Shown here: piece after piece, positions 2,951 through 58,872 of the stretch | Layout of the letters: each line of letters opens with the position of its first letter | Position numbering within the stretch: the stretch's first letter is position 1 | Assembly (NCBI GenBank): GCA_902499925.1 | Contig: GCA_902499925.1_4130.1 | Source: Escherichia coli | Lineage (GTDB): Bacteria; Pseudomonadota; Gammaproteobacteria; Enterobacterales; Enterobacteriaceae | Direction: 5' to 3' (one strand) | Length of the DNA: 64,000 nt | The notes under the pieces: model-generated | What the model saw: only the letters and a program-made list of their open reading frames with translations | Told to the model about the DNA's origin: nothing | Database searches by the model: none | Translations under genes and position numbers: made by a program

Positions 2951-3346
2951 TTAGATAACCTGGCGGCGTTTACTGTATACTGTTACACGATTACCCTTAC
3001 GGTCGTGTCGGATCTCTTTCTGGTTGCGAATCAGTTCACTTGGACGCTTAAGGTTTGCCAGGTGATCCGCGTGAGTCCAAGCGGTATGGTTTACCTGTAC
3101 TTTGATATCAGAACCAGCGATAAACTCATCTTGTGCGTTAAGTACTGCCGCCAGATCTTCCGCTCGTTTTAGTTCTGCTGCTGTTAGTACTGGCTCAGGT
3201 GAATTCACAATATCAGAGATCTCTTTGAACTGTACGGCCCAACGTTGGCCTTTCGGTGCATCTTTGCCCATGTCTTTAAATGCTGCTCCTTCCTCGCGTG
3301 CAACAATACGGGCAGCTTCACGGGTAGCGTAGAATTTAGTAATCAT
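2951..3346 (-). CDS. hypothetical protein (131 aa); paralog of 15602..15865
   Basis: Minus ORF, start at Met4 with AGGA RBS; shares KFYATREAARI...FKDMG...RWA...DRKGNRVTVY with 15602..15865. Confidence 0.6.
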   Translation of the reverse strand: MITKFYATREAARIVAREEGAAFKDMGKDAPKGQRWAVQFKEISDIVNSPEPVLTAAELKRAEDLAAVLNAQDEFIAGSDIKVQVNHTAWTHADHLANLKRPSELIRNQKEIRHDRKGNRVTVYSKRRQVI

Positions 3347-3441
3347 GGTATACATCCTATTAGTTAAGTTAGTACTACAAGTTAGAGTCTATTATAAAGT
3401 ACTATCTGGGCAATGTCAAATAGTACTTTAAATGGATTCTA

Positions 3442-3765
3442 TTACATGTCTTTCTTACGTTTTACATCGTAGTAGCGAACTGTTATTTCTTTGTTAATCT
3501 CTTTTTCGATGTGGTGAATAACTTTTTCTTTCGGGTTGAAACCTATAACGGTTTCTTTAATGATCTCCAAACCAGTGTATTCGCCTTGTGTGCCGTAACC
3601 GTATGTAAAGGTTTCATGTCCCAGGTCTTCCCAGCGGTCGCCAATTAACGCAGACACGTAGCAAGAGTGGTAAGTATTGCCGTGTGAATCAGTCCACCGA
3701 TTAACTTTAATGTCAAAGGAGGTTACAATTTTCAATTCTACTTTCTGGGCAAGGATCATAGCCAT
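3442..3765 (-). CDS. hypothetical protein (107 aa); paralog of 10290..10613
   Basis: Minus ORF; shares RWTDSHGNTYHSC(Y/H)VS and FTYGY motifs with 10290..10613; promoter 3822-3850 and hairpin 3789-3807 upstream. Confidence 0.6.
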   Translation of the reverse strand: MAMILAQKVELKIVTSFDIKVNRWTDSHGNTYHSCYVSALIGDRWEDLGHETFTYGYGTQGEYTGLEIIKETVIGFNPKEKVIHHIEKEINKEITVRYYDVKRKKDM

Positions 3766-3788
3766 TTTTATTTCTCTCTTTTAGTTAG

Positions 3789-3807
3789 GAGGGGAACCAT
3801 TCCCCTC
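3789..3807 (-). promoter_or_regulatory. 5'-UTR stem-loop (family member)
   Basis: GAGGGGAA-loop-TTCCCCTC inverted repeat between promoter and RBS. Confidence 0.5.
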
Positions 3808-3821
3808 ACTTGATGTAAACT

Positions 3822-3850
3822 ATTATACAGTACTAAGATACTTTGTCAAT
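3822..3850 (-). promoter_or_regulatory. sigma70-like early promoter (TTGACA-16/17-TATAAT)
   Basis: Reverse complement reads TTGACAaagtatcttagtactgTATAAT. Confidence 0.6.
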
Positions 3851-3852
3851 AC

Positions 3853-4035
3853 TTATTTTTTGGAAAGTTTACGCATTAATTCTACGCTTTCTTGTGAACG
3901 TTTTGCTACCTGGCAAGCTGCATGGACAGTAAACATTTTTGTATAGTCTGACGCTTTGCCACCGAACCGAGCGGCACGTTCACGGGCACTTGGAACTAAT
4001 ACTATTTCTTTCTTGCAGATAGTGCACTTAGCCAT
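3853..4035 (-). CDS. small CxxC protein (60 aa)
   Basis: Trimmed to Met16 (MAKCTICKKE); RBS GAGAGAAATAAAA; hairpin upstream. Confidence 0.5.
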   Translation of the reverse strand: MAKCTICKKEIVLVPSARERAARFGGKASDYTKMFTVHAACQVAKRSQESVELMRKLSKK

Positions 4036-4123
4036 TTTTATTTCTCTCTCTTTGTTAGGAGGGGAACCGTTTCCCCTCACTCGATGTAAACTATTATACA
4101 GTACTAAGATACTTTGTCAATAC

Positions 4124-4399
4124 TTAATTATTGTAAATGTCGTGAATAGTGATAAAGTTTTTACGACCGTAAACCTGCAAATCAATATCAATGTAGTGCT
4201 TATCTAGTACATCCTCGACGCTTAACGCGGTGTCGTGGATATCTTCGTAGAATTGAGGATCTACAATCTTGCTTAAGTCATCCGGCGTTAACTTATCGTT
4301 AAGCCATTGAACCGCCTGGATATCTGCTTCACGTTTCCAGTCTTCCAGGTTAGTAGTCAGTACTTGTTCGATTTCGTTAGCTGTCAGTAGAATCCGCAT
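4124..4399 (-). CDS. hypothetical acidic protein (91 aa)
   Basis: Minus ORF; RBS AAGGAAACATAAAA. Confidence 0.6.
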   Translation of the reverse strand: MRILLTANEIEQVLTTNLEDWKREADIQAVQWLNDKLTPDDLSKIVDPQFYEDIHDTALSVEDVLDKHYIDIDLQVYGRKNFITIHDIYNN

Positions 4400-4665
4400 T
4401 TTTATGTTTCCTTATCAGTGGTTGATGTAAGTATTATACTCTTTTACTTTCTATTGTCAAACTATTTTATCAGGGGAGGTTTTCTTATGTCTTACTCCTG
4501 GACTACTTAACGGGGTTACTTGTTTCGTTCCCCGTCCTGATGTAAAACATTATACTTGATTCTAAGTACAATGCAAGTACTTTTTTAAAAATAGTTTTCA
4601 GTACTAGCCACCAGCATATAATAGATACATTTATGCACCCTGTGGGCTGATTTGTTTCTATGCGT

Positions 4666-4705
4666 ATATAATAGCAAAGGGACTGACCGGAGTCAATCCC
4701 TTTTT
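4666..4705 (-). promoter_or_regulatory. terminator-promoter cassette (early-region variant)
   Basis: Same element as 1398-1437. Confidence 0.5.
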
Positions 4706-4714
4706 CAATTATTT

Positions 4715-4864
4715 TTAAACTTCTTTCGGGTTGCGATAGGTGATAGCGTTCGGGTACATTTGTTTAATGTTATTCCATGCCTGGTTAACATTGTAACCAC
4801 TTGAGCGAATCAGTTGGTTACTACCGACACCTTGAAACACTACTTCGAATAAGAATTCTTTCAT
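4715..4864 (-). CDS. hypothetical small protein (49 aa)
   Basis: Untracked ORF MKEFLFEVVFQGVGSNQ...; ATG overlaps TGA of 4861..5034 (ATGA); followed by terminator cassette 4666-4705. Confidence 0.35.
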   Translation of the reverse strand: MKEFLFEVVFQGVGSNQLIRSSGYNVNQAWNNIKQMYPNAITYRNPKEV

Positions 4865-5034
4865 GCTTTCACCTCGCGATCTGCTTTACCTTTACGCCAG
4901 GACATTACTAATTGTTCGCGTTGCCATAAGTCGAGTGATACAAAAAGTTTTGCGGTATCACTTTTAGGATACTCGCCATTAGTACCTAACCGATAAAACA
5001 GATCTTTCAGTACTGATAATTCTACTTGGATCAT
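4861..5034 (-). CDS. hypothetical protein (57 aa)
   Basis: Track ORF 4861..5136 trimmed to Met35 (MIQVELS) with RBS AGAGGAAAG; hairpin upstream. Confidence 0.5.
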   Translation of the reverse strand: MIQVELSVLKDLFYRLGTNGEYPKSDTAKLFVSLDLWQREQLVMSWRKGKADREVKA

Positions 5035-5120
5035 TATACTTTCCTCTTTGTTGGGAGGGGAACTATTCCCCTCTCGATATAAAACATTATACACTTTATT
5101 CAGTACTGTGCAAGTACTTT

Positions 5121-5333
5121 TTAATCTTTCAGCCAATGATCCTGAATGAATTTTTCGCCGGAACCTTGCTGCATAGATTGTAACAGACGTTCACGATGAG
5201 CGGCGGCGAATTGCTCAGTACTATGCGTTACACCTGGTTGATATCTGGATTCACCATTGGGGGCGATGTATTGTACATCCCACGGTTTTTCGTTAGTATC
5301 AGACCATTTACGAACGATTAGTTGACCTTGCAT
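5121..5333 (-). CDS. hypothetical protein (70 aa)
   Basis: Minus ORF; RBS AGAGGAAAGAAAA; hairpin GGGGAGAATCATTTCTCCCC upstream. Confidence 0.6.
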   Translation of the reverse strand: MQGQLIVRKWSDTNEKPWDVQYIAPNGESRYQPGVTHSTEQFAAAHRERLLQSMQQGSGEKFIQDHWLKD

Positions 5334-5416
5334 TTTTCTTTCCTCTTAGTGGGGAGAATCATTTCTCCCCTTCATGTAAACTATTATACAGTACTAGATT
5401 ATCTTGTCAATAGTTT

Positions 5417-5740
5417 TTATTCACCTTGTTTGAATTTAGTTTTCTCCATTGATTCCATGATTGCAACCAATACACCGTGGATCTCGCTTAACGCGGAATC
5501 ACTAAAAGCATTAATGAATAGTCGATCATTCTCGCGAATATTTTTAATGTACTTTTCAGCAGTAGTTGCGAATTCATTCAACGGTAGATCAAATGCTTTA
5601 TCCCATGATGGATGGCGTAATTGTAACAGTACTGGATTATCACGATCACCAGGGGAAAACGTACCAGTGATGAAACATACGCCCGGAATACTTTCGAACT
5701 GGCAACGGACTTCCTTTGTGATAGTAGTATGAATGTACAT
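5417..5740 (-). CDS. hypothetical protein (107 aa)
   Basis: Minus ORF; RBS AGAGGATAACAATAA. Confidence 0.6.
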   Translation of the reverse strand: MYIHTTITKEVRCQFESIPGVCFITGTFSPGDRDNPVLLQLRHPSWDKAFDLPLNEFATTAEKYIKNIRENDRLFINAFSDSALSEIHGVLVAIMESMEKTKFKQGE

Positions 5741-5767
5741 TTATTGTTATCCTCTATTAAATTAATA

Positions 5768-5956
5768 TTACAGTTTATGAATCAATTCTTTATCTAAGCG
5801 ATAGCGTACATTATTAATGGTAACAGCATTATTTTTAATGCTACGCTGTACAGGTCCACCAGCAATAACAAATGTTGCTTTATTACCCCGAACAATGATA
5901 GCACTTCCAGGATTACCGAAATCATCTTGTACTAAAATACTTGATAAGTTTTCCAT
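5768..5956 (-). CDS. hypothetical protein (62 aa)
   Basis: Minus ORF; RBS AGAGGAAATAAAA; hairpin upstream. Confidence 0.55.
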   Translation of the reverse strand: MENLSSILVQDDFGNPGSAIIVRGNKATFVIAGGPVQRSIKNNAVTINNVRYRLDKELIHKL

Positions 5957-6034
5957 TTTTATTTCCTCTTAGTAGGGGAAGATGTTTCCCCTTGATGTAA
6001 GTACTATAACAGTACTGAAAACTAAATGCAAGTA

Positions 6035-6391
6035 CTATGATAAAATCATGATAGGATATTCACTATCGATCAGTACCTCGAATCCGAAACCTTCGTACCA
6101 TTCTTTAAGATTAAAGGCGTTATCTTCTCCCGTATCGCATTCTAAGATGATACAATCTGAATCATCAGCGGCATCGATAAAGGCATTCATTAATTCGTTA
6201 CCTTCACCATTGCCCCGACTATCAGGATCAACATAAAGAGAATCAATAAACGCTACACGGTCATAATCAAGATCCGGTGCAATGATTCCACGTTTAACAA
6301 ACCAGTACTGCAATTGTGCTACTTTGCCCTGTACTTGATAGCCAGTGATCTCGCCATTGTCAGTAGTACGCGTGATATGTTGTATTCCCAT
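6035..6391 (-). CDS. GNAT-like N-acetyltransferase (118 aa), tentative
   Basis: Motif VDPDSRGNGEGNELMNAF resembles the GNAT acetyl-CoA-binding motif A; RBS GAGGATAG; TATAAT box upstream. Confidence 0.5.
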   Translation of the reverse strand: MGIQHITRTTDNGEITGYQVQGKVAQLQYWFVKRGIIAPDLDYDRVAFIDSLYVDPDSRGNGEGNELMNAFIDAADDSDCIILECDTGEDNAFNLKEWYEGFGFEVLIDSEYPIMILS

Positions 6392-6455
6392 GATTACTAT
6401 CCTCAGTTAAGATATAAAACATTATACACTATCTTTCAGTACTGTCAATTACTTT

Positions 6456-6713
6456 TTATCTCATAGATCTATGCCAACAATTACGCGGGGGACGTTTAAA
6501 AGTACTATCATGATCCTCCTGGCAAGTAATGCAGTACATGCACCCTATAACGGCCTGGCGTCGATTCTCAGGGATTTTATCGCCGCAGTCGAGGCAATGT
6601 ACTAGTGATTCTCTTTGTGCGTTAATTTGCTTTCTAGCGTGGTTGACGGCGGCCTGAATCACTGCGTTGATCTCGTCTTGTTCGGCCCCGTCTTTCGCGT
6701 ATCCTACTGCCAT
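6456..6713 (-). CDS. TraR/DksA-family C4 zinc-finger protein (85 aa)
   Basis: C-x2-C...C-x2-C arrangement (CLDCGDKIPENRRQAV...CITCQ) typical of TraR/DksA zinc fingers; RBS GAGGTTAAAATA. Confidence 0.6.
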   Translation of the reverse strand: MAVGYAKDGAEQDEINAVIQAAVNHARKQINAQRESLVHCLDCGDKIPENRRQAVIGCMYCITCQEDHDSTFKRPPRNCWHRSMR

Positions 6714-7042
6714 TATTTTAACCTCATTATAAAAATACTATAGTACTGTAATGCTACAATAATACTACTAGTGTTTATCTTATTCAAACCATATGATACT
6801 ACATATCCATCAGCATTACCACGGATAGTAACGCCTTTGTACTGTCTATATAAATTCAACTGCGTATATTGCCTTTGATCAAGAATTGATCAGAATTATA
6901 CGCCTTATGCTAAATTAATCCAGTACTTTTTTGATCATTTATTGATCGATATTATATAGTTACATTTGTGCACCCTATGGGTTAGTGACGTTCTCGTCTT
7001 GATGTAAGTATTATGCCAGTACTGGAGGATATTGTCAATAGA

Positions 7043-7588: not shown

Positions 7589-7768
7589 TTAGCGGTAATC
7601 GTCGTATGCTTTATTCACCTGGCGAATGTAACTTTCAAAGGCTTCGTCTACCGTTTCATACTCCCGAACATAATCACCATAGGAAACTACATACATACCT
7701 TTTTGATCTTCAAACGTCATGATGATAGAATCCAGGCCGATGATTTCAGTTTTTGCGATGATAGCCAT
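7589..7768 (-). CDS. hypothetical protein (59 aa)
   Basis: Trimmed to Met22; RBS AAGGAATTAAAA. Confidence 0.5.
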   Translation of the reverse strand: MAIIAKTEIIGLDSIIMTFEDQKGMYVVSYGDYVREYETVDEAFESYIRQVNKAYDDYR

Positions 7769-7850
7769 TTTTAATTCCTTAGTAGTGTAGTTGATAAAAG
7801 TTATTATGCCAGTACTATCAATCAGTGTCAATAGTACTGTGATAATATTT

Positions 7851-8063
7851 TTAGTTAATGATAGTCAGTGTAAAATTGTAATCCCCTGCCTGGTATAGTA
7901 CTTTGTCGCCGAACGTTCCAACACGTTTCATATTGCAATAGATACCCATAACACTTTTTACATCTTTGATATTCCGAACGCCAGTAATATCCTTGTTTAA
8001 ATGATCGTGATCAGAAAATAAAACTTGTTTTGCATTTTTCAGTACAGTGCAGATATTAGCCAT
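7851..8063 (-). CDS. hypothetical protein (70 aa)
   Basis: Minus ORF; hairpin 8084-8103 and promoter upstream. Confidence 0.55.
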   Translation of the reverse strand: MANICTVLKNAKQVLFSDHDHLNKDITGVRNIKDVKSVMGIYCNMKRVGTFGDKVLYQAGDYNFTLTIIN

Positions 8064-8083
8064 TTTGTTTTCTCTCTGTTAGT

Positions 8084-8103
8084 GGGGAGAATCATTTCTC
8101 CCC
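8084..8103 (-). promoter_or_regulatory. 5'-UTR stem-loop (family member)
   Basis: Perfect 8-bp inverted repeat GGGGAGAA-tcat-TTCTCCCC. Confidence 0.5.
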
Positions 8104-8157
8104 TTGATGTAAACTATTATACAGTACTATAATCTATTGTCAAACTATTTTTTTATA

Positions 8158-8499
8158 TTATTCGAAATCTTCTGGACCGGACTGATAATCATCTTCACCG
8201 TATGCACTTTCTAACCGCTCACCAGTGTGATCATCAGTTAGTGAGTCATCCTCATAGTTCACGTCTACGCCAGTGATGTAAAACTGGCTATCGTCTGGAT
8301 CATTGAAATTAATTTTTTGGATGTTTACAATAACTGTATTGATACCCAGGACACCGCCATCAGCCGTTACAAAGTACTGATAGTTTTCGCAACCGCCTGA
8401 ATTGAAACCGTAATTAATTTCGGCCCGACCATCATTTAAACGCAGTGCCTGGGCGATGATTTCATTTTCAAAGTTAGATTGAGCAATTGAGATAGTCAT
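8158..8499 (-). CDS. hypothetical acidic protein (113 aa)
   Basis: Minus ORF; RBS AAGGAAACAAATC; hairpin upstream. Confidence 0.6.
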   Translation of the reverse strand: MTISIAQSNFENEIIAQALRLNDGRAEINYGFNSGGCENYQYFVTADGGVLGINTVIVNIQKINFNDPDDSQFYITGVDVNYEDDSLTDDHTGERLESAYGEDDYQSGPEDFE

Positions 8500-8681
8500 G
8501 ATTTGTTTCCTTATTACCAGGGGAAACCGTTTCCCCTTTCGATGTAAAACATTATACGCTTATTGAGATAGTTTGCAAGTACTTTCTACAAATACTTTTA
8601 AAATAGTTTTCAGTACTCAAACATTATATAATAGATACACTTATGCACCCTGTGGGCTAGTGAGCTATCTCTCAATGAATA

Positions 8682-8720
8682 TATAATAGCAAAATGGCTG
8701 ACCGGAGTCAACCACTTTTT
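8682..8720 (-). promoter_or_regulatory. terminator-promoter cassette (early-region variant)
   Basis: TGGTTGAC-tccg-GTCAGCCA then TATTAT. Confidence 0.5.
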
Positions 8721-8954: not shown

Positions 8955-9103
8955 TTTTTAGCCTGAAAGTAATGTTTAATTTGAGCGGCGGTCAGTGCAC
9001 AATTACGCAGGAAGTTTTCTGTATAACTGCGGCGAGTACTGAAAGAGAATTGACCTTTGCCGTTACCGATAGTAACATCAAACCGAGCGTTGTATTGTTT
9101 CAT
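8951..9103 (-). CDS. hypothetical protein (50 aa)
   Basis: Trimmed to Met11; RBS AGGAGAAACAAA; hairpin upstream. Confidence 0.45.
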   Translation of the reverse strand: MKQYNARFDVTIGNGKGQFSFSTRRSYTENFLRNCALTAAQIKHYFQAKK

Positions 9104-9181
9104 TTTGTTTCTCCTGTTATTGGGGAGAATCATTTCTCCCCTTCATGTAAAACATTATACAGTACTAAAAACTAATTGCAA

Positions 9182-9331
9182 GTACTATTTTTTAGATTTA
9201 CGCAAACTTTCTACCATCTCAGGAGTAAGGCCAGGCGGGTAGAAAACCACTTCATCAACGAAACGTAAAGGGAATACCCCATCTAAGGTTGAACGTGCTT
9301 TCTTGTTAGTACTCTTTTTTGATGCTTTCAT
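9182..9331 (-). CDS. hypothetical small basic protein (49 aa)
   Basis: Untracked ORF MKASKKSTNKKARSTLDG...; RBS AAGGAATATGAA; hairpin upstream. Confidence 0.4.
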
Positions 9332-9400
9332 TTCATATTCCTTAATTAGTGGGGAGAATCATTTCTCCCCTTCATGTAAAACATTATACGCGTTTAAAAA

Positions 9401-10702: not shown

Positions 10703-10846
10703 TTACTTACTTTTTTCTTTCTTTATTACTTCCACCTGGTCGGCCCATTCTTTACCCCATACTTGTAAATTATAATGGTACTGGCAAAGAGCAACGCCCC
10801 GCTTTAAACCCGTAATAGATTTCTGACCACATTGACAAGTTTTCAT
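10703..10846 (-). CDS. hypothetical small Cys-containing protein (47 aa)
   Basis: Untracked ORF MKTCQCGQKSITGLKRGVALCQYH...; RBS AAGGAAACTAAA; hairpin upstream. Confidence 0.4.
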   Translation of the reverse strand: MKTCQCGQKSITGLKRGVALCQYHYNLQVWGKEWADQVEVIKKEKSK

Positions 10847-10932
10847 TTTAGTTTCCTTGTAGTGGGGAGAACCATTTCTCCCCTTGATGTAATGTATTAT
10901 ACTTTATTCGATTTACTTTGCAAGTACTTTTT

Positions 10933-11160
10933 TTAATTTAATTCATCAAGGCAAAGGATACGCTCAACGCCCAAATCAGTTAAACTAATCGACGGCACTT
11001 GATAGGTTTCAATGTATGCTACACTTGCCCACTGACCGAACTCATTAACGGCCCAGGTATTCATTGCATTTTGCAATTCCGCACCTTCCTTGTTGGTAAT
11101 GACTGCAACTACTTGTTCGTTGCCAGTAGTACCAGATACGCGAGTAATGATAATAGCCAT
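10933..11160 (-). CDS. hypothetical protein (75 aa)
   Basis: Trimmed to Met20; RBS AAAGGAATCAAAACA; promoter TTGCAC-16-TATAAT upstream. Confidence 0.55.
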   Translation of the reverse strand: MAIIITRVSGTTGNEQVVAVITNKEGAELQNAMNTWAVNEFGQWASVAYIETYQVPSISLTDLGVERILCLDELN

Positions 11161-11396
11161 TGTTTTGATTCCTTTGATTTGGAAGGAGAACCGTTTCCCC
11201 CTCTCGATGTAAAACATTATACGCTAATCTCTTAATCGTGCAAGTACTTTTTATTACTTTTTGCAAAATACTTTAAACGCTCTCAATCGCATTACAACGA
11301 CCTTAACGCCACCAGCTAGGGCAATTGCATCAGATAATCAGTTTAATGCGTTAGAATCGTTTCTAGGCGGTGCTGGTGGCCTGGTAAACGATAAAC

Positions 11397-11425
11397 ACAA
11401 AAAAGCCCACCATTTAAGGTGGGCT
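11397..11425 (-). terminator. intrinsic terminator
   Basis: Hairpin AGCCCACC-ttaaatg-GTGGGCT followed by U6 on minus-strand RNA, 3' of 11447..11929. Confidence 0.6.
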
Positions 11426-12131: not shown

Positions 12132-12161
12132 AAACAAAAAAGCCCACTGTATAAGTGGGCT
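12132..12161 (-). terminator. intrinsic terminator
   Basis: Hairpin AGCCCACT-tataca-GTGGGCT followed by U-run on minus RNA, 3' of 12179..12478. Confidence 0.6.
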
Positions 12162-12178: not shown

Positions 12179-12478
12179 TTATAAACAGTTAATTACTCCG
12201 GTGTGCGTTACTTTCTCAGTATCCATTACAGTGACCGAACCGCGTTTAGTACTTGCATCGTAATAAATTGTCGTGCTACCTTTTTCGTCTTCTTCATGGA
12301 ACGGGCCGCTTTTAAATGCTTCTGGCTGGATCTCTAAATCCTTTAAAACAATCTCGCCAGTACTTTCATTGGTCATCGCTACAGTGCACTGAATGAATTT
12401 TTCATTACTTACATCTAACGACGCATTAACAGCGAAAGAGGAAACAGATAAAGCCAGGGCGATGATTGCAATTTTCAT
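12179..12478 (-). CDS. secreted protein with N-terminal signal peptide (99 aa)
   Basis: N-terminus MKIAIIALALSVSSFAVNA is signal-peptide-like; RBS AAGGATAATCAA. Confidence 0.6.
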   Translation of the reverse strand: MKIAIIALALSVSSFAVNASLDVSNEKFIQCTVAMTNESTGEIVLKDLEIQPEAFKSGPFHEEDEKGSTTIYYDASTKRGSVTVMDTEKVTHTGVINCL

Positions 12479-12562
12479 TTGATTATCCTTAGTTACCAGG
12501 GGGAACCGCTCCCCCTTGCGATGTAAAATATTATACAGTTCTAAAAACTATTATCAAGTACT

Positions 12563-12799
12563 TTATGATTTTTTATAAAACATTTCAGCAGTGATATTTT
12601 TACCCGTTGGCTGTACTTTATCCAGGATTTTTTGATGTCCAGGCCGACCAAATGAATATGATCCGTAAACCGTAAACCAGTAGTTACCCTCAGTGTTTAC
12701 ATGTACAGCACAATAAGGAACACCACGCGATTCATCACTAGTAAAGTGTGATACCGTTCCCGTTACATTCGCAGACGTTGATTTGATTTGTTCGAGCAT
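12563..12799 (-). CDS. hypothetical protein (78 aa)
   Basis: Minus ORF; RBS AAGGAATAAGAAA; hairpin upstream. Confidence 0.55.
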   Translation of the reverse strand: MLEQIKSTSANVTGTVSHFTSDESRGVPYCAVHVNTEGNYWFTVYGSYSFGRPGHQKILDKVQPTGKNITAEMFYKKS

Positions 12800-12906
12800 T
12801 TTCTTATTCCTTAGTTACCAGGGGAACCACTCCCCTATGCAAAACATTATACGCGTTTAAAAACTAATTGCAAGTATTTTAATAAAAAGTATTTGAAAAA
12901 TAGTTG

Positions 12907-13003: not shown

Positions 13004-13036
13004 CTGAAAAAGTAACGGGGAGTTATTATCTCCCCG
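13004..13036 (-). terminator. intrinsic terminator
   Basis: Hairpin CGGGGAGATAATAACTCCCCG then UUACUUUUUC on minus RNA, 3' of 13042..13263. Confidence 0.55.
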
Positions 13037-13041
13037 CGTTG

Positions 13042-13263
13042 TTATTTGGTAAGGTATAAACAGAAGTCACCTTTATTTGCTACGCCGCCAGTGTAACGCG
13101 ATGAATAGTTAGAAACGTCCTGGACTTCTGCTATTACCAGTGTATCATCATTCATTTCGTCGCAGAAGCAAACGGCTGGATCTTGTACGCCGATTTTGTC
13201 GGCATGTTCCCGCATAGATTTAACCAGTGCTTCCAGTTGGGAAAGAGTAGTGATATTAGCCAT
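13042..13263 (-). CDS. hypothetical protein (73 aa)
   Basis: Trimmed to Met11; RBS GAGGAAAATAAA; hairpin upstream. Confidence 0.55.
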   Translation of the reverse strand: MANITTLSQLEALVKSMREHADKIGVQDPAVCFCDEMNDDTLVIAEVQDVSNYSSRYTGGVANKGDFCLYLTK

Positions 13264-13349
13264 TTTATTTTCCTCATTACCAGGGAGAACCATTTCTCCC
13301 TTTGATGTAAACCATTATACAGTACTGAAAACTAATTGCAAGTACTTTT

Positions 13350-13855: not shown

Positions 13856-13911
13856 TAGATAATCCTCAGTAAAGGCGGGAACCATTCCCGCCATTGATTC
13901 AGTACTGAATG

Positions 13912-14151
13912 TTACATTCCAACCATTGCGGCACGGATCGCAGTAGTGCTATACTTGAATCCGTCCGGCGTTGTAGTAGTACCGTTGGCTTTTAATCTGC
14001 GGTACATACATTGGGCCGCAATATCTTTAGTTTTACATTGTGCGATGCAACTTTGAGCAAGCCGATATAATGACTCACCGTTATTAATCCACAATGAAAC
14101 ATTCCAATGAGTTTTGTTTTTGTGCCCGTTGTAAGTTTTAGTACTAGCCAT
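13912..14151 (-). CDS. hypothetical protein (79 aa); paralog of 15951..16190
   Basis: Trimmed to Met11; RBS GAGGATTTAAAA; shares GHKNKTHWNVSLWINN...PDGFKYSTTAIRAAMVGM. Confidence 0.55.
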   Translation of the reverse strand: MASTKTYNGHKNKTHWNVSLWINNGESLYRLAQSCIAQCKTKDIAAQCMYRRLKANGTTTTPDGFKYSTTAIRAAMVGM

Positions 14152-14241
14152 TTTTAAATCCTCGTTTGAGCGGGGAACCATTCCCCGCCTCGATATAAAG
14201 TATTATACGCTTTTAAACTTAGTTTGCAAGTACTTTTTGAA

Positions 14242-14853: not shown

Positions 14854-15078
14854 TTTGTAACCCTCATTCAGTAGTTGATGTAAGTATTATACGCTTTTAA
14901 AAACATTTGTCAAACTATTTTATCAGGGGAGTTTTTCGTGTGCCTTACTCCTGGGCTACTTAACGGGGAGTTACTTATTTCGTTCCCCGTCCTGATGTAA
15001 AACATTATACGCCTTTAAACATAGTTTGCAAGTACTTTTTAAAAATAGTTTTCAGTACTGAATATTAAAAAAAAAGTA

Positions 15079-15281: not shown

Positions 15282-15512
15282 TTATACTGCAATCGCGTCC
15301 AGGCTATAATAATAATAAGTGCCGTATTGGTGTACTTTATTACCTTTTATTTCAGTACTGAATGAATCCGAACGATTGGCATATGATGTTAATTTAAAGT
15401 ACTTTGATTTGCTGATACGTTGCCATACACCGCAGATCCGCTGTAAGTAAGTAGTTTTATTAGTGGTAGTATCTTTTACGGTTTTAACTTCAGTCATATA
15501 CATATTGGTCAT
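15282..15512 (-). CDS. hypothetical protein (76 aa)
   Basis: Minus ORF; RBS AAGGAGTAAAAAAA; hairpin 15535-15553 upstream. Confidence 0.55.
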   Translation of the reverse strand: MTNMYMTEVKTVKDTTTNKTTYLQRICGVWQRISKSKYFKLTSYANRSDSFSTEIKGNKVHQYGTYYYYSLDAIAV

Positions 15513-15601
15513 TTTTTTTTACTCCTTGCTTTAGTGGGGAACTATTCCCCACCTGATATAAAGTATTATACGCTTTTAAACTTAGTTTGCAAGTACTTTT
15601 T

Positions 15602-15950: not shown

Positions 15951-16190
15951 TTACATTCCAACCATCGCCGCACGGATCGCAGTAGTGCTATATTTGAATC
16001 CGTCCGGTGTTTTATCTTGTCCAGTCTGTTCTAAAAATAACATCATATGACGGGCCGCATCATTGCGATTAGTGCTATCGTTAATAAAGTCCTGGGCCAA
16101 CCGGTATAATGATTCATCGTTATTAATCCAAAGGCTTACATTCCAATGAGTTTTGTTTTTGTGACCTAAGAACATTTTTGATTTAGCCAT
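15951..16190 (-). CDS. hypothetical protein (79 aa); paralog of 13912..14151
   Basis: Minus ORF; RBS AAGAGGATTAAAAA; hairpin upstream. Confidence 0.55.
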   Translation of the reverse strand: MAKSKMFLGHKNKTHWNVSLWINNDESLYRLAQDFINDSTNRNDAARHMMLFLEQTGQDKTPDGFKYSTTAIRAAMVGM

Positions 16191-16282
16191 TTTTTAATCC
16201 TCTTATATAGTGGGGAACTATTCCCCACCTGATGTAAAACATTATACGCTTTTAAACTTAGTTTGCAAGTACTTTATTAAAC

Positions 16283-16645
16283 TTATTTGTAAATTTTGCC
16301 ACTGTCAGCCCATACCAGGAAACGATGCATATTATCCCATGCATCTTGTTTTAAATTTAAACCGTGCAATTCCTCAGTAGTTGCCATCCCTGGTACTGGC
16401 TTACTACACACCGCGAAATTTTCTCCCATGTACTGATAAACCATCGTTAAATCATTTGAGATCATTACATGGATCATTGAATCAAGCATCAAAGTAGCGG
16501 CGTATTGTTCACGCTTAAGCGGCAACATTGCAATAAGTTCCCGATAAGCTGCAATGTGAATTTTTACAGTTTCAGCCGGAAGACCTTTCATCTCTTCACG
16601 GAAGTTAACCAGGTTAAGCATGATTTTATTGATTTGAGTCGCCAT
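16283..16645 (-). CDS. hypothetical protein (120 aa)
   Basis: Trimmed to Met20; RBS AAGAGAGATTAAAACG; hairpin AGCGGGAA-gtg-TTCCCGCT upstream. Confidence 0.6.
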   Translation of the reverse strand: MATQINKIMLNLVNFREEMKGLPAETVKIHIAAYRELIAMLPLKREQYAATLMLDSMIHVMISNDLTMVYQYMGENFAVCSKPVPGMATTEELHGLNLKQDAWDNMHRFLVWADSGKIYK

Positions 16646-17008
16646 CGTTTTAATCTCTCTTAATGTGTAGCGGGAAGTGTTCCCGCTCTCGATGTAAAAC
16701 ATTATACGCTTTTATCAGTACGGTGCAAGTACTTTCTACAAATACTTTTAAAATAGTTTTCTTTCTATATAGGGGAACTATTATTCAGTACTGCAACCAT
16801 CCAGGGGAACTATCTTTCTATATAGTAGTACTATCATTCAGTACTGAATCAATCCACCAAATCATCCCGATACCCCGTAAAACGGCCTCAGACGCATTCT
16901 AACGCATTAATACACCTAAGCTATACATTTGCACCATTCCAATCATTCCAGGGCTTTACTGGCCGTTTAAACGCGTTAAATTATTTTCAATTATTTTGTT
17001 TTTAGCTA

Positions 17009-17036
17009 TTGACTCAGTACTAAAAAAGCGTATAAT
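17009..17036 (+). promoter_or_regulatory. plus-strand sigma70-like promoter
   Basis: TTGACT-16-TATAAT on plus strand inside the non-coding island. Confidence 0.4.
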
Positions 17037-17223
17037 TACTACATAGACGCGAGAAAGCGGATACCCCAGGGGGTGGGAAGATCCGTCCAAAATTCATAAA
17101 ATTTAAAAAGGATACACTCCCGCACCCTAGCAGGTCAAAGCACTTTCTCAGTACTGAAATATAGTACCATAGTCCGGCCCAGGATAGCAAGCAAATTAAT
17201 TAAAACTTTTTGCTTCCAGGGTA

Positions 17224-17251
17224 TTGCTTTATTTTTCCAGTACTGTATAAT
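17224..17251 (+). promoter_or_regulatory. plus-strand promoter-like box
   Basis: TTGCTT-16-TATAAT on plus strand; CCCACCGGGTGC box downstream. Confidence 0.35.
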
Positions 17252-46614: not shown

Positions 46615-46650
46615 AGCTATAATAGCAAAAGGGCTGACCGAAGTCAACTC
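46615..46650 (-). promoter_or_regulatory. terminator-promoter cassette (degenerate copy)
   Basis: Hairpin GAGTTGAC-ttcg-GTCAGCCC with one mismatch, then TATTAT. Confidence 0.4.
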
Positions 46651-47338: not shown

Positions 47339-47376
47339 ATTATAACAAAAAGGGCTGACCGAAGTCAACCCTTTGT
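47339..47376 (-). promoter_or_regulatory. terminator-promoter cassette
   Basis: Minus strand reads GGGTTGAC-ttcg-GTCAGCCC, T-run, TGtTATAAT (extended -10). Confidence 0.55.
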
Positions 47377-48650: not shown

Positions 48651-49205
48651 TTATTTCAAAGAATCATAGTAAGCAGTGTCAAAGATTGGAGTCATAATAA
48701 CATAGTCAATACGGTCAATGTAAGTTGAACTCCACATTTCTGGTTTGTCATAAAATTGACGCTCGCGTTCATTCATACGAGTCAGTACTTCTTCCAATTT
48801 ACTACGTGAAGCCATCAATGTATTACGCGATCCATAAGTGAAGTACTCAGTCCATTGATATTCATATTCAGTACTGATAGATTGAATAGTACCATCTTTG
48901 AAATGAGCTAAGGCATATCCTTTCTCTACAAAGTTATCAGGTGGAAGAACACTATCTGGATTAGTTTTCAATGCTTTGGTTAACTTTTCTTTAATTTCAG
49001 TTAACGTGCATACTGAACGAATGTTCTTCAGGTTTGATACTTGAAAATCACTGTACTTTCCAAAGAAAAATACACGCCAATCTTTAGGTTCATTATCAGA
49101 TACGGTAATATTCGGATGATGGGCGAGTAAACGAAGAAGGCCAGCTTTGTGACCGTTAATGTAGATCTCATGGATGTGGTTAGCAGTTTTCTTAAAAGTA
49201 ATCAT
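48651..49205 (-). CDS. hypothetical protein (184 aa)
   Basis: RBS GAGGAATTGTC; own promoter TTGACA-17-TATAAT and 5'-UTR hairpin 49223-49243. Confidence 0.6.
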   Translation of the reverse strand: MITFKKTANHIHEIYINGHKAGLLRLLAHHPNITVSDNEPKDWRVFFFGKYSDFQVSNLKNIRSVCTLTEIKEKLTKALKTNPDSVLPPDNFVEKGYALAHFKDGTIQSISTEYEYQWTEYFTYGSRNTLMASRSKLEEVLTRMNERERQFYDKPEMWSSTYIDRIDYVIMTPIFDTAYYDSLK

Positions 49206-49222
49206 GACAATTCCTCGATTGT

Positions 49223-49243
49223 GGGGATGAGAAGTTCATCCCC
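49223..49243 (-). promoter_or_regulatory. 5'-UTR stem-loop (family member)
   Basis: GGGGATGA-gaagt-TCATCCCC inverted repeat between promoter and RBS. Confidence 0.5.
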
Positions 49244-49281
49244 TTGATAAACATTATACAGTACTGAATGAGTTTGTCAAC

Positions 49282-51700: not shown

Positions 51701-51740
51701 ATTATAGCAAAAAGGGCCGACCGAAGTCAACCCTTTTCTT
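51701..51740 (-). promoter_or_regulatory. terminator-promoter cassette
   Basis: GGGTTGAC-ttcg-GTCGGCCC, T-run, TATAAT. Confidence 0.55.
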
Positions 51741-52379: not shown

Positions 52380-52417
52380 CAATATTTACAAAAAAAGGTT
52401 GACCGAAGTCAACCTTT
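52380..52417 (-). promoter_or_regulatory. terminator-promoter cassette
   Basis: Perfect hairpin AAGGTTGAC-cgaa-GTCAACCTT, T-run, TAAATA. Confidence 0.5.
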
Positions 52418-54465: not shown

Positions 54466-54498
54466 TATATATAAAGGTTGACCGAAGTCAACCCTATT
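54465..54498 (-). promoter_or_regulatory. terminator-promoter cassette
   Basis: GGGTTGAC-ttcg-GTCAACC, T-run, TATATAAT. Confidence 0.5.
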
Positions 54499-55241: not shown

Positions 55242-55280
55242 ATTATACGACAAAGGGCTGACCGAAGTCAACCCCTTTTA
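55242..55280 (-). promoter_or_regulatory. terminator-promoter cassette
   Basis: GGGGTTGAC-ttcg-GTCAGCCC, T-run, TATAAT. Confidence 0.55.
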
Positions 55281-58835: not shown

Positions 58836-58872
58836 ATTATAACAAAAAAGGTTGACCGAAGTCAACCTTTAT
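58836..58872 (-). promoter_or_regulatory. terminator-promoter cassette
   Basis: Perfect hairpin AGGTTGAC-ttcg-GTCAACCT, T-run, TGtTATAAT. Confidence 0.55.

Follow-up and report, generated by a model that had tools for sequence, protein, structure and literature searches.

Leader hairpins with selected pairing in early promoter cassettes of an Asteriusvirus-type jumbo coliphage

What is the role of a short palindrome that recurs, with differing arms, in front of many small genes of one genome? This question is raised by a 64,000-nt stretch of DNA from an Escherichia coli assembly (GCA_902499925.1, contig GCA_902499925.1_4130.1; the whole stretch is called the window below), in which a G/C-rich hairpin at 3789–3807 belongs to a family of similar elements located mostly between the –10 box of a promoter and the ribosome-binding site (RBS) of an early gene. 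We observe that selection acts on the pairing, at the RNA level and on the gene strand, and not on the loop sequence, and we consider it very probable that the element is a selected RNA leader hairpin inside a mobile cassette resembling the promoter-early stem-loop (PeSL) cassettes of T4-like phages.

By sequence similarity the window is assigned to an Asteriusvirus-type jumbo coliphage, with ~96% identity to fEgEco12 and CMSTMSU; at positions 3000–7000 the identity to phages of this type with genomes of 350–385 kb (fEgEco12, CMSTMSU, WPEC3, 121Q, PBECO4) is 94–96%. The region 1–17.4 kb is densely filled with small open reading frames (ORFs) on the minus strand, whose counterparts in fEgEco12 are g01–g060 at the left end of the linear genome, and in Klebsiella phage fENko-Kae01 the equivalent region lies inside a 19.7-kb direct terminal repeat. 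Annotations of relatives in this region include a DksA-like zinc-finger protein, a GNAT acetyltransferase, a Ser/Thr kinase and "spackle". The genes are called early here on the basis of promoter type, gene content and genome position.

An exhaustive scan of the window for hairpins and promoters yielded 22 canonical leader hairpins, all on the minus (gene) strand between 55 and 16687, as well as two long-loop variants and one outlier at 49.2 kb (Table 1); the total of 25 is close to the approximately 24 copies estimated in the sequence-only reading, an earlier inspection of the letters without database searches. The promoter of each canonical copy is of the sigma70 type, TTGACA/TTGCAn-N16–17-TATAAT, with an A/T-rich stretch upstream. 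The stem of 7–9 bp starts 8–14 nt (mode 12–13) after the consensus –10, and an ATG opening an ORF is found 20–30 nt downstream of the hairpin, with an A/U-rich spacer and a Shine–Dalgarno (SD) sequence in between. The copy at 3789–3807 reads GAGGGGAA-CCA-TTCCCCTC on the plus strand, and its minus-strand context is TTGACA-N17-TATAAT-agtttacATCAAGT-GAGGGGAA-UGG-UUCCCCUC-cuaacuaaaagagagaaauaaaaAUG. The pattern GGGAA-N3–8-TTCCC alone occurs 11 times, compared to 0.09 expected. A covariance model of 13 copies, applied to both strands of the 64 kb with all filters off, retrieved no copy beyond the catalogued sites and a few terminator-type hairpins, and none inside genes.

The pairing was counted in Python, anchored at the apex and proceeding outward from the loop; a MAFFT alignment was set aside because it misplaced gaps in the 5' arm. 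In the window copies, canonical pairs occupy positions 1–7 in 22 of 22 cases, position 8 in 18 of 22, and positions 9–11 in ~25%. The pool of the window and ten annotated relatives (vB_Ec-M-J, G17, EJP2, fEgEco12, 121Q, Salmonella phage Munch, Klebsiella phage fENko-Kae01, Erwinia phage pEa_SNUABM_47, Vequintavirinae phage W70, and Justusliebigvirus muut) contains 97 unique hairpin-bearing leaders, where positions 1–7 are canonical in 96–100% and position 9 in 29%; all but one UUCG-type outlier from the Erwinia locus have the hairpin on the gene strand. Hairpins are present in 95 of the 212 unique promoter-like leaders (window and ten related loci), compared to 1.3–1.5% of shuffled leaders. 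In these 95 leaders the distance from the –10 box to the stem is 8–16 nt with the mode at 12, and the loop length in the pooled unique leaders is 3–7 nt.

The sequence-only reading had noted compensatory changes in the stems, and the covariation analysis, based on a gap-free alignment of 40 distinct hairpins with 3-nt loops, agrees with it. The paired fraction, 96.3% of cells, is biased because the hairpins were chosen for pairing, and less biased are the counts of changes on both sides, seen at five of eight pairs; one stem position shows G-C, A-U, C-G and U-A. The covariation score is 0.42, versus 0.177 ± 0.017 for shuffled alignments (none of 500 reaches 0.42) and at most 0.153 for slid partners. 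The strand asymmetry had been noted in a single copy (1243–1262, here 1244–1263), where an A/C mismatch on the plus strand indeed corresponds to a G·U pair in the minus-strand RNA, and it extends to the family: in 43 distinct stems there are 15 internal G·U wobbles on the gene strand versus four A·C or C·A (p = 0.02). This count relies on strand-neutral detection, with Watson–Crick pairs required on both sides of a mismatch; accepting G·U as pairs gave 26 versus 4, a biased figure, and detection by Watson–Crick pairs only is distorted by loop shrinkage. The G·U excess is modest, in the direction expected for gene-strand RNA.

The rates of change are consistent with these data. When orthologous cassettes are compared between the window and five Asteriusvirus genomes, the divergence is 20% in the loop, 3.7–5.3% in the arms, 1.2–1.5% in the –10 and –35 boxes, 8–9% in the spacer, the initial transcribed sequence and the 3' leader, and 5.9% in coding sequence, so that loops diverge approximately four times faster than stems. 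In Erwinia phage pEa_SNUABM_47 the same position is occupied by unrelated stems, GGGUAAGC/GCUUACCC and GGUUAAGGG/CUCUUAACC. The predicted free energy of the hairpins is –10 to –15 kcal/mol (mean z –2.8), and the SD and AUG are unpaired in the predicted minimum free energy (MFE) folds. No Rfam family matched the window at gathering thresholds. An exact-pattern scan of IMG/VR with TATAATGTTTTACATC returned 72 loci, mostly by chance, with cassettes only on contigs of the same phage group. The core claim of the sequence-only reading, a selected RNA structure on the transcribed strand, is thus supported by the pairing, the covariation, the wobble bias, the slow arms and fast loops, and the position on the gene strand. 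Its five quoted stem variants all exist, with coordinates shifted by 0–7 nt (14170, 13874 rather than 13881, 15534, 16669). One of them, at 13874–13892 on the minus strand, belongs elsewhere: as it has no promoter, directly follows a stop codon and precedes a U-rich stretch (UUUACU), it is terminator-like and not an element of a 5' untranslated region.

The hairpin is one module of a mobile PeSL-type promoter cassette, a point that the sequence-only reading had missed. The cassette of ~85 bp comprises, in this order, an A/T-rich upstream element, a near-consensus sigma70 promoter, the short, conserved initial transcribed sequence ACAUCGA, the G/C-rich hairpin of 7–9 bp, an A/U-rich spacer of 6–15 nt, the SD, and ATG. 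Early promoters fall into two classes, hairpin-bearing and hairpin-less. In class 1, the hairpin-bearing one, the discriminator is GTTTTAC, with ATCGA next to it; in class 2, ACTTA precedes CATCAAC (discriminator ACTTACATCAAC, e.g., at 14886, 4433, 7534, 6421, and 3391), and the leader is short and unstructured, with no hairpin. Class 1 accounts for 24 of the ~30 early promoter-like sites at 1–18 kb of the window, which is the share to which the earlier statement on "most early genes" corresponds, and for ~11 of 26 promoters in Salmonella phage Munch.

The early region is a mosaic, as relatives cover 25–82% of its 18 kb in several pieces. Breakpoints of homology with five relatives fall inside promoter cassettes in 32 of 65 cases, compared to 12.8% expected (p ~1e-12), although breakpoints of different phages are not independent and intergenic DNA generally may be favoured. 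The window cassette at 914–998 is exactly reproduced by two successive vB_Ec-M-J cassettes, the first giving its upstream half and the second its downstream half, with the junction near the SD, and the intervening 135-codon gene EcMJ_640 is absent from the window. The same cassette with its downstream gene is found in W70 (Vequintavirinae, locus 7725–8090) and in muut (Justusliebigvirus, ~6080–6131), which points to horizontal transfer of cassette-plus-gene units between unrelated coliphage families, as judged from the sequences. We infer that the cassette is a site of gene swapping between phages, its conserved sequence supplying the homology for PeSL-type shuffling.

How would the hairpin act in the message? 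Host RNA polymerase would start ~7–8 nt after TATAAT, at the A of ACAUC, and the stem would thus be 1–7 nt (mode 5) from the predicted 5' end. Positioned in this way, the hairpin may act in cis as an autonomous folding unit protecting the message, in the manner of the T7 gene 10 and ompA stem-loops; in read-through transcripts it would form a barrier to 3' exonucleases for the upstream message; and it may insulate the RBS from the joined ORF or upstream RNA, providing for context-independent, high early expression. We give a function of stabiliser or insulator roughly even chances. The promoter-plus-leader module as a whole probably steadies early gene expression.

Several points weigh against protection of the message by the hairpin. 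A literature search found no mapping of transcription starts for Asteriusvirus or Rak2-like phages. Most copies are predicted to have ~5 unpaired 5' nucleotides, maybe enough for RppH and RNase E; RppH needs only 2–3 unpaired nucleotides. Emory et al. in 1992 reportedly found that strong protection needs a hairpin ~2–4 nt from the end. A simple orthogonal stem-loop is easily bypassed by scanning RNase E (PMC9943677), so that an internal hairpin alone would be a weak barrier, and the mechanism of an obstacle to RNase E scanning is weakened by this bypass. The promoters of class 2, from one fifth to one half of early promoters, have no hairpin, and therefore it is not required for early expression. 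Finally, the 5' arm is always purine-rich and the top pairs GAA/UUC are 86–90% conserved in enterobacterial copies, which leaves room for a sequence-specific partner, or else reflects merely concerted evolution of the cassettes.

Such a partner is the essence of one alternative, in which the hairpin marks early messages for recognition in trans by an RNA-binding protein or endoribonuclease, encoded by the phage or by the host, that would act on all the marked messages simultaneously, e.g., for early shut-off at the middle switch in the manner of T4 RegA/RegB or for polymerase modification in the manner of lambda N-boxB. The constant composition of the arms (5' arm G/A-rich, 3' arm C/U-rich), the prevalence of A-U at the two loop-proximal pairs (86–90%) and of G-C at pair 5 (96%) among the 97 unique leaders, and the restriction of the hairpin to one promoter class, as expected of a regulon tag, are in line with this scheme. 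However, the loops are the fastest-evolving part (20%), vary from 3 to 7 nt and have no common nucleotide, neither a bulge nor a conserved unpaired base is available for specific recognition, the stem of the Erwinia relative is unrelated, Rfam gave no match and no candidate protein was identified, and we consider a tag of this kind unlikely. A lambda boxB/nut-type site in particular was rejected by the loop length, the 20% loop divergence between orthologues and the lack of an Rfam match. Slightly less likely still is the specific form of regulon tag where a phage-encoded RNA-binding protein or structure-specific ribonuclease would bind the G-rich/C-rich stem and switch ~25–50 hairpin-class messages, but not the hairpin-less ones, off or on together at the early-to-middle transition, the tag travelling with the cassette from one unrelated coliphage family to another. 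The hairpin might instead serve mainly the upstream gene, as the 3'-terminal barrier left after an endonucleolytic cut in the A/U-rich spacer of read-through RNA, similarly to the repetitive extragenic palindromic (REP) stabilisers or to the hairpins that RNase III cleavage produces in early T7 RNA. Read-through is expected, as most genes have no terminator between them, the stem is G/C-rich and stable at the energies given above, and the A/U-rich single-stranded stretch downstream is of the kind preferred by RNase E. On the other hand, a 3' barrier could sit anywhere between genes, but these hairpins invariably come after the start point of their own promoter (which common descent may also explain), and the first cassettes of a transcription series carry them too. 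A mainly 3'-terminal role is therefore improbable in our view; the barrier function itself is compatible with the stabiliser or insulator function and does not exclude it.

Termination would be a further possibility, and the window itself provides the comparison. In the 8 nt that follow the stem, the leader hairpins have 1.6 U on average and no T-run exceeding two, whereas the UUCG-loop hairpins and promoterless G/C hairpins of the same window have 5.6–5.8 U and T-runs of 3–6. As the leader hairpins have no U-tract, they are not intrinsic terminators, and this identity was rejected; in the GenBank annotation of phage G17, which is based on ARNold, they are not called terminators. For the stem-loops of RB49/phi1 PeSL cassettes, an attenuator or terminator of polymerases coming from upstream has been proposed. 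When a PeSL stem-loop of RB49 was inserted between a promoter and lacZ, expression fell to the same extent as with rrnB T1 (PMC2839356), and RB49 stem-loops are likewise Gn-loop-Cn (PMC4122927). Here, however, the short T-runs speak against attenuation, canonical A-tract/hairpin/T-run terminators exist elsewhere in the same genome, and a terminator downstream of its own start would abort the cassette's own transcripts, all of which makes an attenuator highly unlikely. Least probable of all is an element acting as DNA, with the RNA hairpin as a by-product: a dimeric repressor operator at +6 to +25, a cruciform, or a recombination hot spot. The position just downstream of the start is the classical one of an operator, the junctions of RB49 PeSL mini-circles are in or beside the stem-loop (PMC2839356), and breakpoints cluster in the cassettes here. 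Against this, the loop, which sets the spacing of half-sites, has any length between 3 and 7 bp, the two arms change in a compensatory and not in an independent manner, mismatches are biased to G·U in the gene-strand RNA, and the crossover mapped in one dissected case is at the SD, outside the hairpin. A dimeric DNA operator was rejected on the grounds of the spacing, the compensatory changes and the strand-specific bias, and a DNA hairpin promoter of the N4 type, by the consensus sigma70 promoter already present upstream. RNase III processing sites have ~20 bp or more of mostly double-stranded RNA. A site of the T7 early type was rejected, as the pairing here ends at 7–9 bp.

Other hairpins of the window are of a different make. 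Promoterless G/C-rich hairpins on the minus strand (2909–2929, 11404–11425, 12141–12161, 13015–13037, and 13874–13892) directly follow stop codons and have U-rich stretches downstream; these hairpins probably represent the genuine intrinsic terminators of the early region. Also on the minus strand, a second type of cassette consists of an A-tract, a GGGTTGAC-UUCG-GUCAGCCC hairpin with the C(UUCG)G tetraloop, a T-run and directly TATAAT. In its eleven copies (Table 1) the 5' arm and loop of the terminator supply the –35 box TTGACT of the next promoter; with the –35 box inside the hairpin, this is a classical PeSL-style terminator-plus-promoter composite.

Table 1. Leader hairpins and UUCG composites in the window (gene-strand RNA; coordinates on the plus strand)
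Feature	Coordinates	Strand	–10 box	ATG	Remarks
Leader hairpin AGGGGGAG-AUAUC-CUCCCCCA	55–75	–	85–90	35–37	9 nt after –10
Leader hairpin GGGGGAAA-UGG-UUUCCCCU	388–406	–	421–426	366–368	one G·U
Leader hairpin GGGGAGAA-UAG-UUCUCCCC	939–957	–	970–975	914–916	chimeric cassette (two vB_Ec-M-J cassettes)
Leader hairpin AGGGGGAA-AUGG-UUCUCCCU	1244–1263	–	1277–1282	1220–1222	G·U wobble (plus-strand A/C mismatch)
Leader hairpin GAGGGGAA-UGG-UUCCCCUC	3789–3807	–	3822–3827	3763–3765	copy described in the text
Leader hairpin GAGGGGAA-ACGG-UUCCCCUC	4059–4078	–	4093–4098	4033–4035	
Long-loop variant ACGGGGA-(12 nt)-CCCCGU	4510–4535	–	ends 4549		within 73-nt ORF-less candidate transcript 4469–4541
Leader hairpin GAGGGGAA-UAG-UUCCCCUC	5055–5073	–	5086–5091	5032–5034	
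Leader hairpin GGGGAGAA-AUGA-UUCUCCCC	5351–5370	–	5383–5388	5331–5333	
Leader hairpin AAGGGGAA-ACAUC-UUCCCCUA	5973–5993	–	6004–6009	5954–5956	7 bp; weaker –10 TTATAG
Leader hairpin GGGGAGAA-AUGA-UUCUCCCC	8084–8103	–	8116–8121	8061–8063	
Leader hairpin AGGGGAAA-CGG-UUUCCCCU	8519–8537	–	8551–8556	8497–8499	
Leader hairpin GGGGAGAA-AUGA-UUCUCCCC	9122–9141	–	9154–9159	9101–9103	
Leader hairpin GGGGAGAA-AUGA-UUCUCCCC	9351–9370	–	9383–9388	9329–9331	
Leader hairpin GGGGAGAA-AUGG-UUCUCCCC	10864–10883	–	10896–10901	10844–10846	cassette and gene common to Vequintavirinae phage W70
Leader hairpin GAGGGGGAA-ACGG-UUCUCCUUC	11182–11203	–	11216–11221	11158–11160	two G·U
Leader hairpin AGGGGGAG-CGG-UUCCCCCU	12498–12516	–	12530–12535	12476–12478	
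Leader hairpin UAGGGGAG-UGG-UUCCCCUG	12819–12837	–	12846–12851	12797–12799	only 8 nt after –10
Leader hairpin AGGGAGAA-AUGG-UUCUCCCU	13282–13301	–	13314–13319	13261–13263	
Leader hairpin GCGGGGAA-UGG-UUCCCCGC	14170–14188	–	14202–14207	14149–14151	
Long-loop variant ACGGGGA-(14 nt)-UCCCCGU	14963–14990	–	ends 15004		within 75-nt ORF-less candidate transcript 14922–14996
Leader hairpin GUGGGGAA-UAG-UUCCCCAC	15534–15552	–	15565–15570	15510–15512	
Leader hairpin GUGGGGAA-UAG-UUCCCCAC	16210–16228	–	16241–16246	16188–16190	
Leader hairpin AGCGGGAA-CAC-UUCCCGCU	16669–16687	–	16701–16706	16643–16645	
Outlying copy GGGGAUGA-ACUUC-UCAUCCCC	49223–49243	–	49253–49258	49203–49205	TTGACA-TATAAT
UUCG terminator-plus-promoter composites (1)	1411–1430, 4680–4699, 8695–8714, 44654–44673, 46631–46650, 47352–47371	–			
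UUCG terminator-plus-promoter composites (2)	51714–51733, 52396–52415, 54475–54494, 55255–55274, 58849–58868	–			

Several loops (AAUGG, AAUGA) contain an in-frame AUG (1253–1255, 9131–9133, 13291–13293, 14179–14181, and similar), and mechanical ORF calls therefore begin within the hairpin, whereas the genuine start codons are ATGs with an SD before them, 30–57 nt downstream. Of the ORFs driven by cassettes, 8 of 22 start with ATGGCTA (Met-Ala), as in T7 gene 10. The two long-loop variants are located between tandem promoters of the minus strand, in candidate transcripts of 73–75 nt with no ORF, where the 5' AUCAGG pairs with the 3' CCUGAU, enclosing the hairpin; the MFE is –19 and –22 kcal/mol (z –2.6 and –3.0), and these are possible small RNAs.

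Adjoining the early region, at ~17000–18700, is an ORF-poor stretch of structured non-coding sequence after strong promoters (–10 ends at 17036 and 17251 on the plus strand and at 17989 on the minus strand). The word CCCAC(N)GGGTGC recurs in this stretch and after the UUCG hairpins at 1411, 4680, and 8695, and the GC skew changes sign at ~18 kb. The palindrome CAGTACTG has 62 copies in the whole window versus 0.9 expected, being densest at 17149–18480. AGTACT, with 275 copies in the window, is present in most early promoters read, as AAAAAGTACTTGCA at –35 and tAGTACTGTATAAT in the spacer, as well as in the form AGTACTGAATCAnT right before promoterless terminator hairpins and in 13 copies in an ORF-poor stretch of 1.4 kb; the word may serve for protein binding or regulation. 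A tandem array of ~13 paralogous ORFs, each of 360–450 codons, occupies 23391–41295 on the plus strand. The 11 ORFs whose upstream flank was read all start with ATGTTACCTTTTG, and the repeat between the array ORFs, with a period of ~1.2 kb, consists of a GCCAGTAC-loop-GTACTGGC hairpin, a T-run, "aaatatagTATAATgaataaaGGAGG" and ATG.

Therapeutic use is being developed for the 121Q/PBECO4/Rak2 group of jumbo phages, and their gene expression is almost unstudied; our search of the literature retrieved no description of these hairpins for Asteriusvirus or Rak2-like phages. The present analysis defines the early expression unit of the group as a strong sigma70 promoter with a structured leader, and shows the cassette as a seam for gain and loss of ORFan genes and for their passage to unrelated coliphages. 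For synthetic biology the cassettes offer ready-made parts (promoter, 5' hairpin and RBS) that nature has already diversified, and they also form a natural series of compensatory mutations for studying the effect of a near-5'-terminal hairpin on the fate of mRNA in E. coli.

Compared to known systems, the leader hairpins share with intrinsic terminators the G/C-rich stem of 7–9 bp and the short loop, but differ from them in the absence of a U-tract and the location downstream of their own promoter, while the look-alikes at 2909, 13015, and 13874 do have U-rich stretches. The lambda nut boxB and HK022 put elements are, similarly, small hairpins near the beginning of early phage messages. A genome contains one or two copies of boxB, which has a boxA partner and a purine-rich pentaloop that is conserved; here the loops are unconserved and of variable length, no boxA-like word was seen, and there are ~25 copies. 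With the ompA-type 5' stabilisers the elements have in common a simple near-5' hairpin in which the pairing matters and the sequence is unimportant, but protection of the ompA type reportedly needs a stem no more than ~2–4 nt from the end (Emory, Bouvet and Belasco, 1992), compared to ~5 nt predicted for most copies here. Such 5'-terminal stem-loops block the 5'-end-dependent decay by RppH and RNase E in E. coli. This decay pathway is described in PMC9943677.

The closest architecture is that of the PeSL cassettes of the T4-like phages RB49/phi1, T4/PST, and KVP40/nt-1 (Arbiol et al., 2010, PMC2839356; Comeau et al., 2014, PMC4122927). In both cases these are repeated intergenic modules of 70–100 bp with an A/T-rich upstream part, a near-consensus sigma70 promoter, a G-run/C-run stem-loop, the SD and the start codon, concentrated among small ORFan genes of a hyperplastic region, with indels, gene replacements between close relatives and chimeric cassettes. 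The published stem-loops, however, precede the –35 and –10 boxes, separate them or overlap with them, in rare cases lying immediately ahead of +1, and have been interpreted as terminating the unit before them. Here the stem comes after the –10 box in each of the 95 leaders, so that the promoter of the cassette itself transcribes it; it has no U-tract, and the phage is a jumbo phage of the Rak2/121Q type, not a T4-like one. As the window also holds the UUCG layout with a terminator in the promoter, the leader-hairpin cassette is a distinct variant, and the two layouts coexist. The PeSL idea is thereby extended beyond T4-like phages, to a layout with the stem-loop in the message and not in a terminator.

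The nearest functional analogue is the leader of T7 gene 10. In NC_001604, which we checked, the phi10 leader has an 8-bp hairpin GGGAGACC-ACAAC-GGUUUCCC at +1, an A/U-rich spacer, the SD and ATGGCT. The two leaders have no sequence homology, and the T7 stem is exactly at +1 of a class III (late) transcript of T7 RNA polymerase, whereas here the promoters are early ones of the host sigma70 type and 1–7 unpaired nucleotides are predicted. The likeness is in the design: a stem of 8 bp with a purine-rich 5' arm and a pyrimidine-rich 3' arm, G·U included, followed by an A/U-rich spacer, the SD and ATG-GCU. According to PMC6146998, which cites Mertens et al. (1996), the gene 10 stem-loop stabilises mRNA and, on transplanting, increases expression 1.5- to 3-fold.

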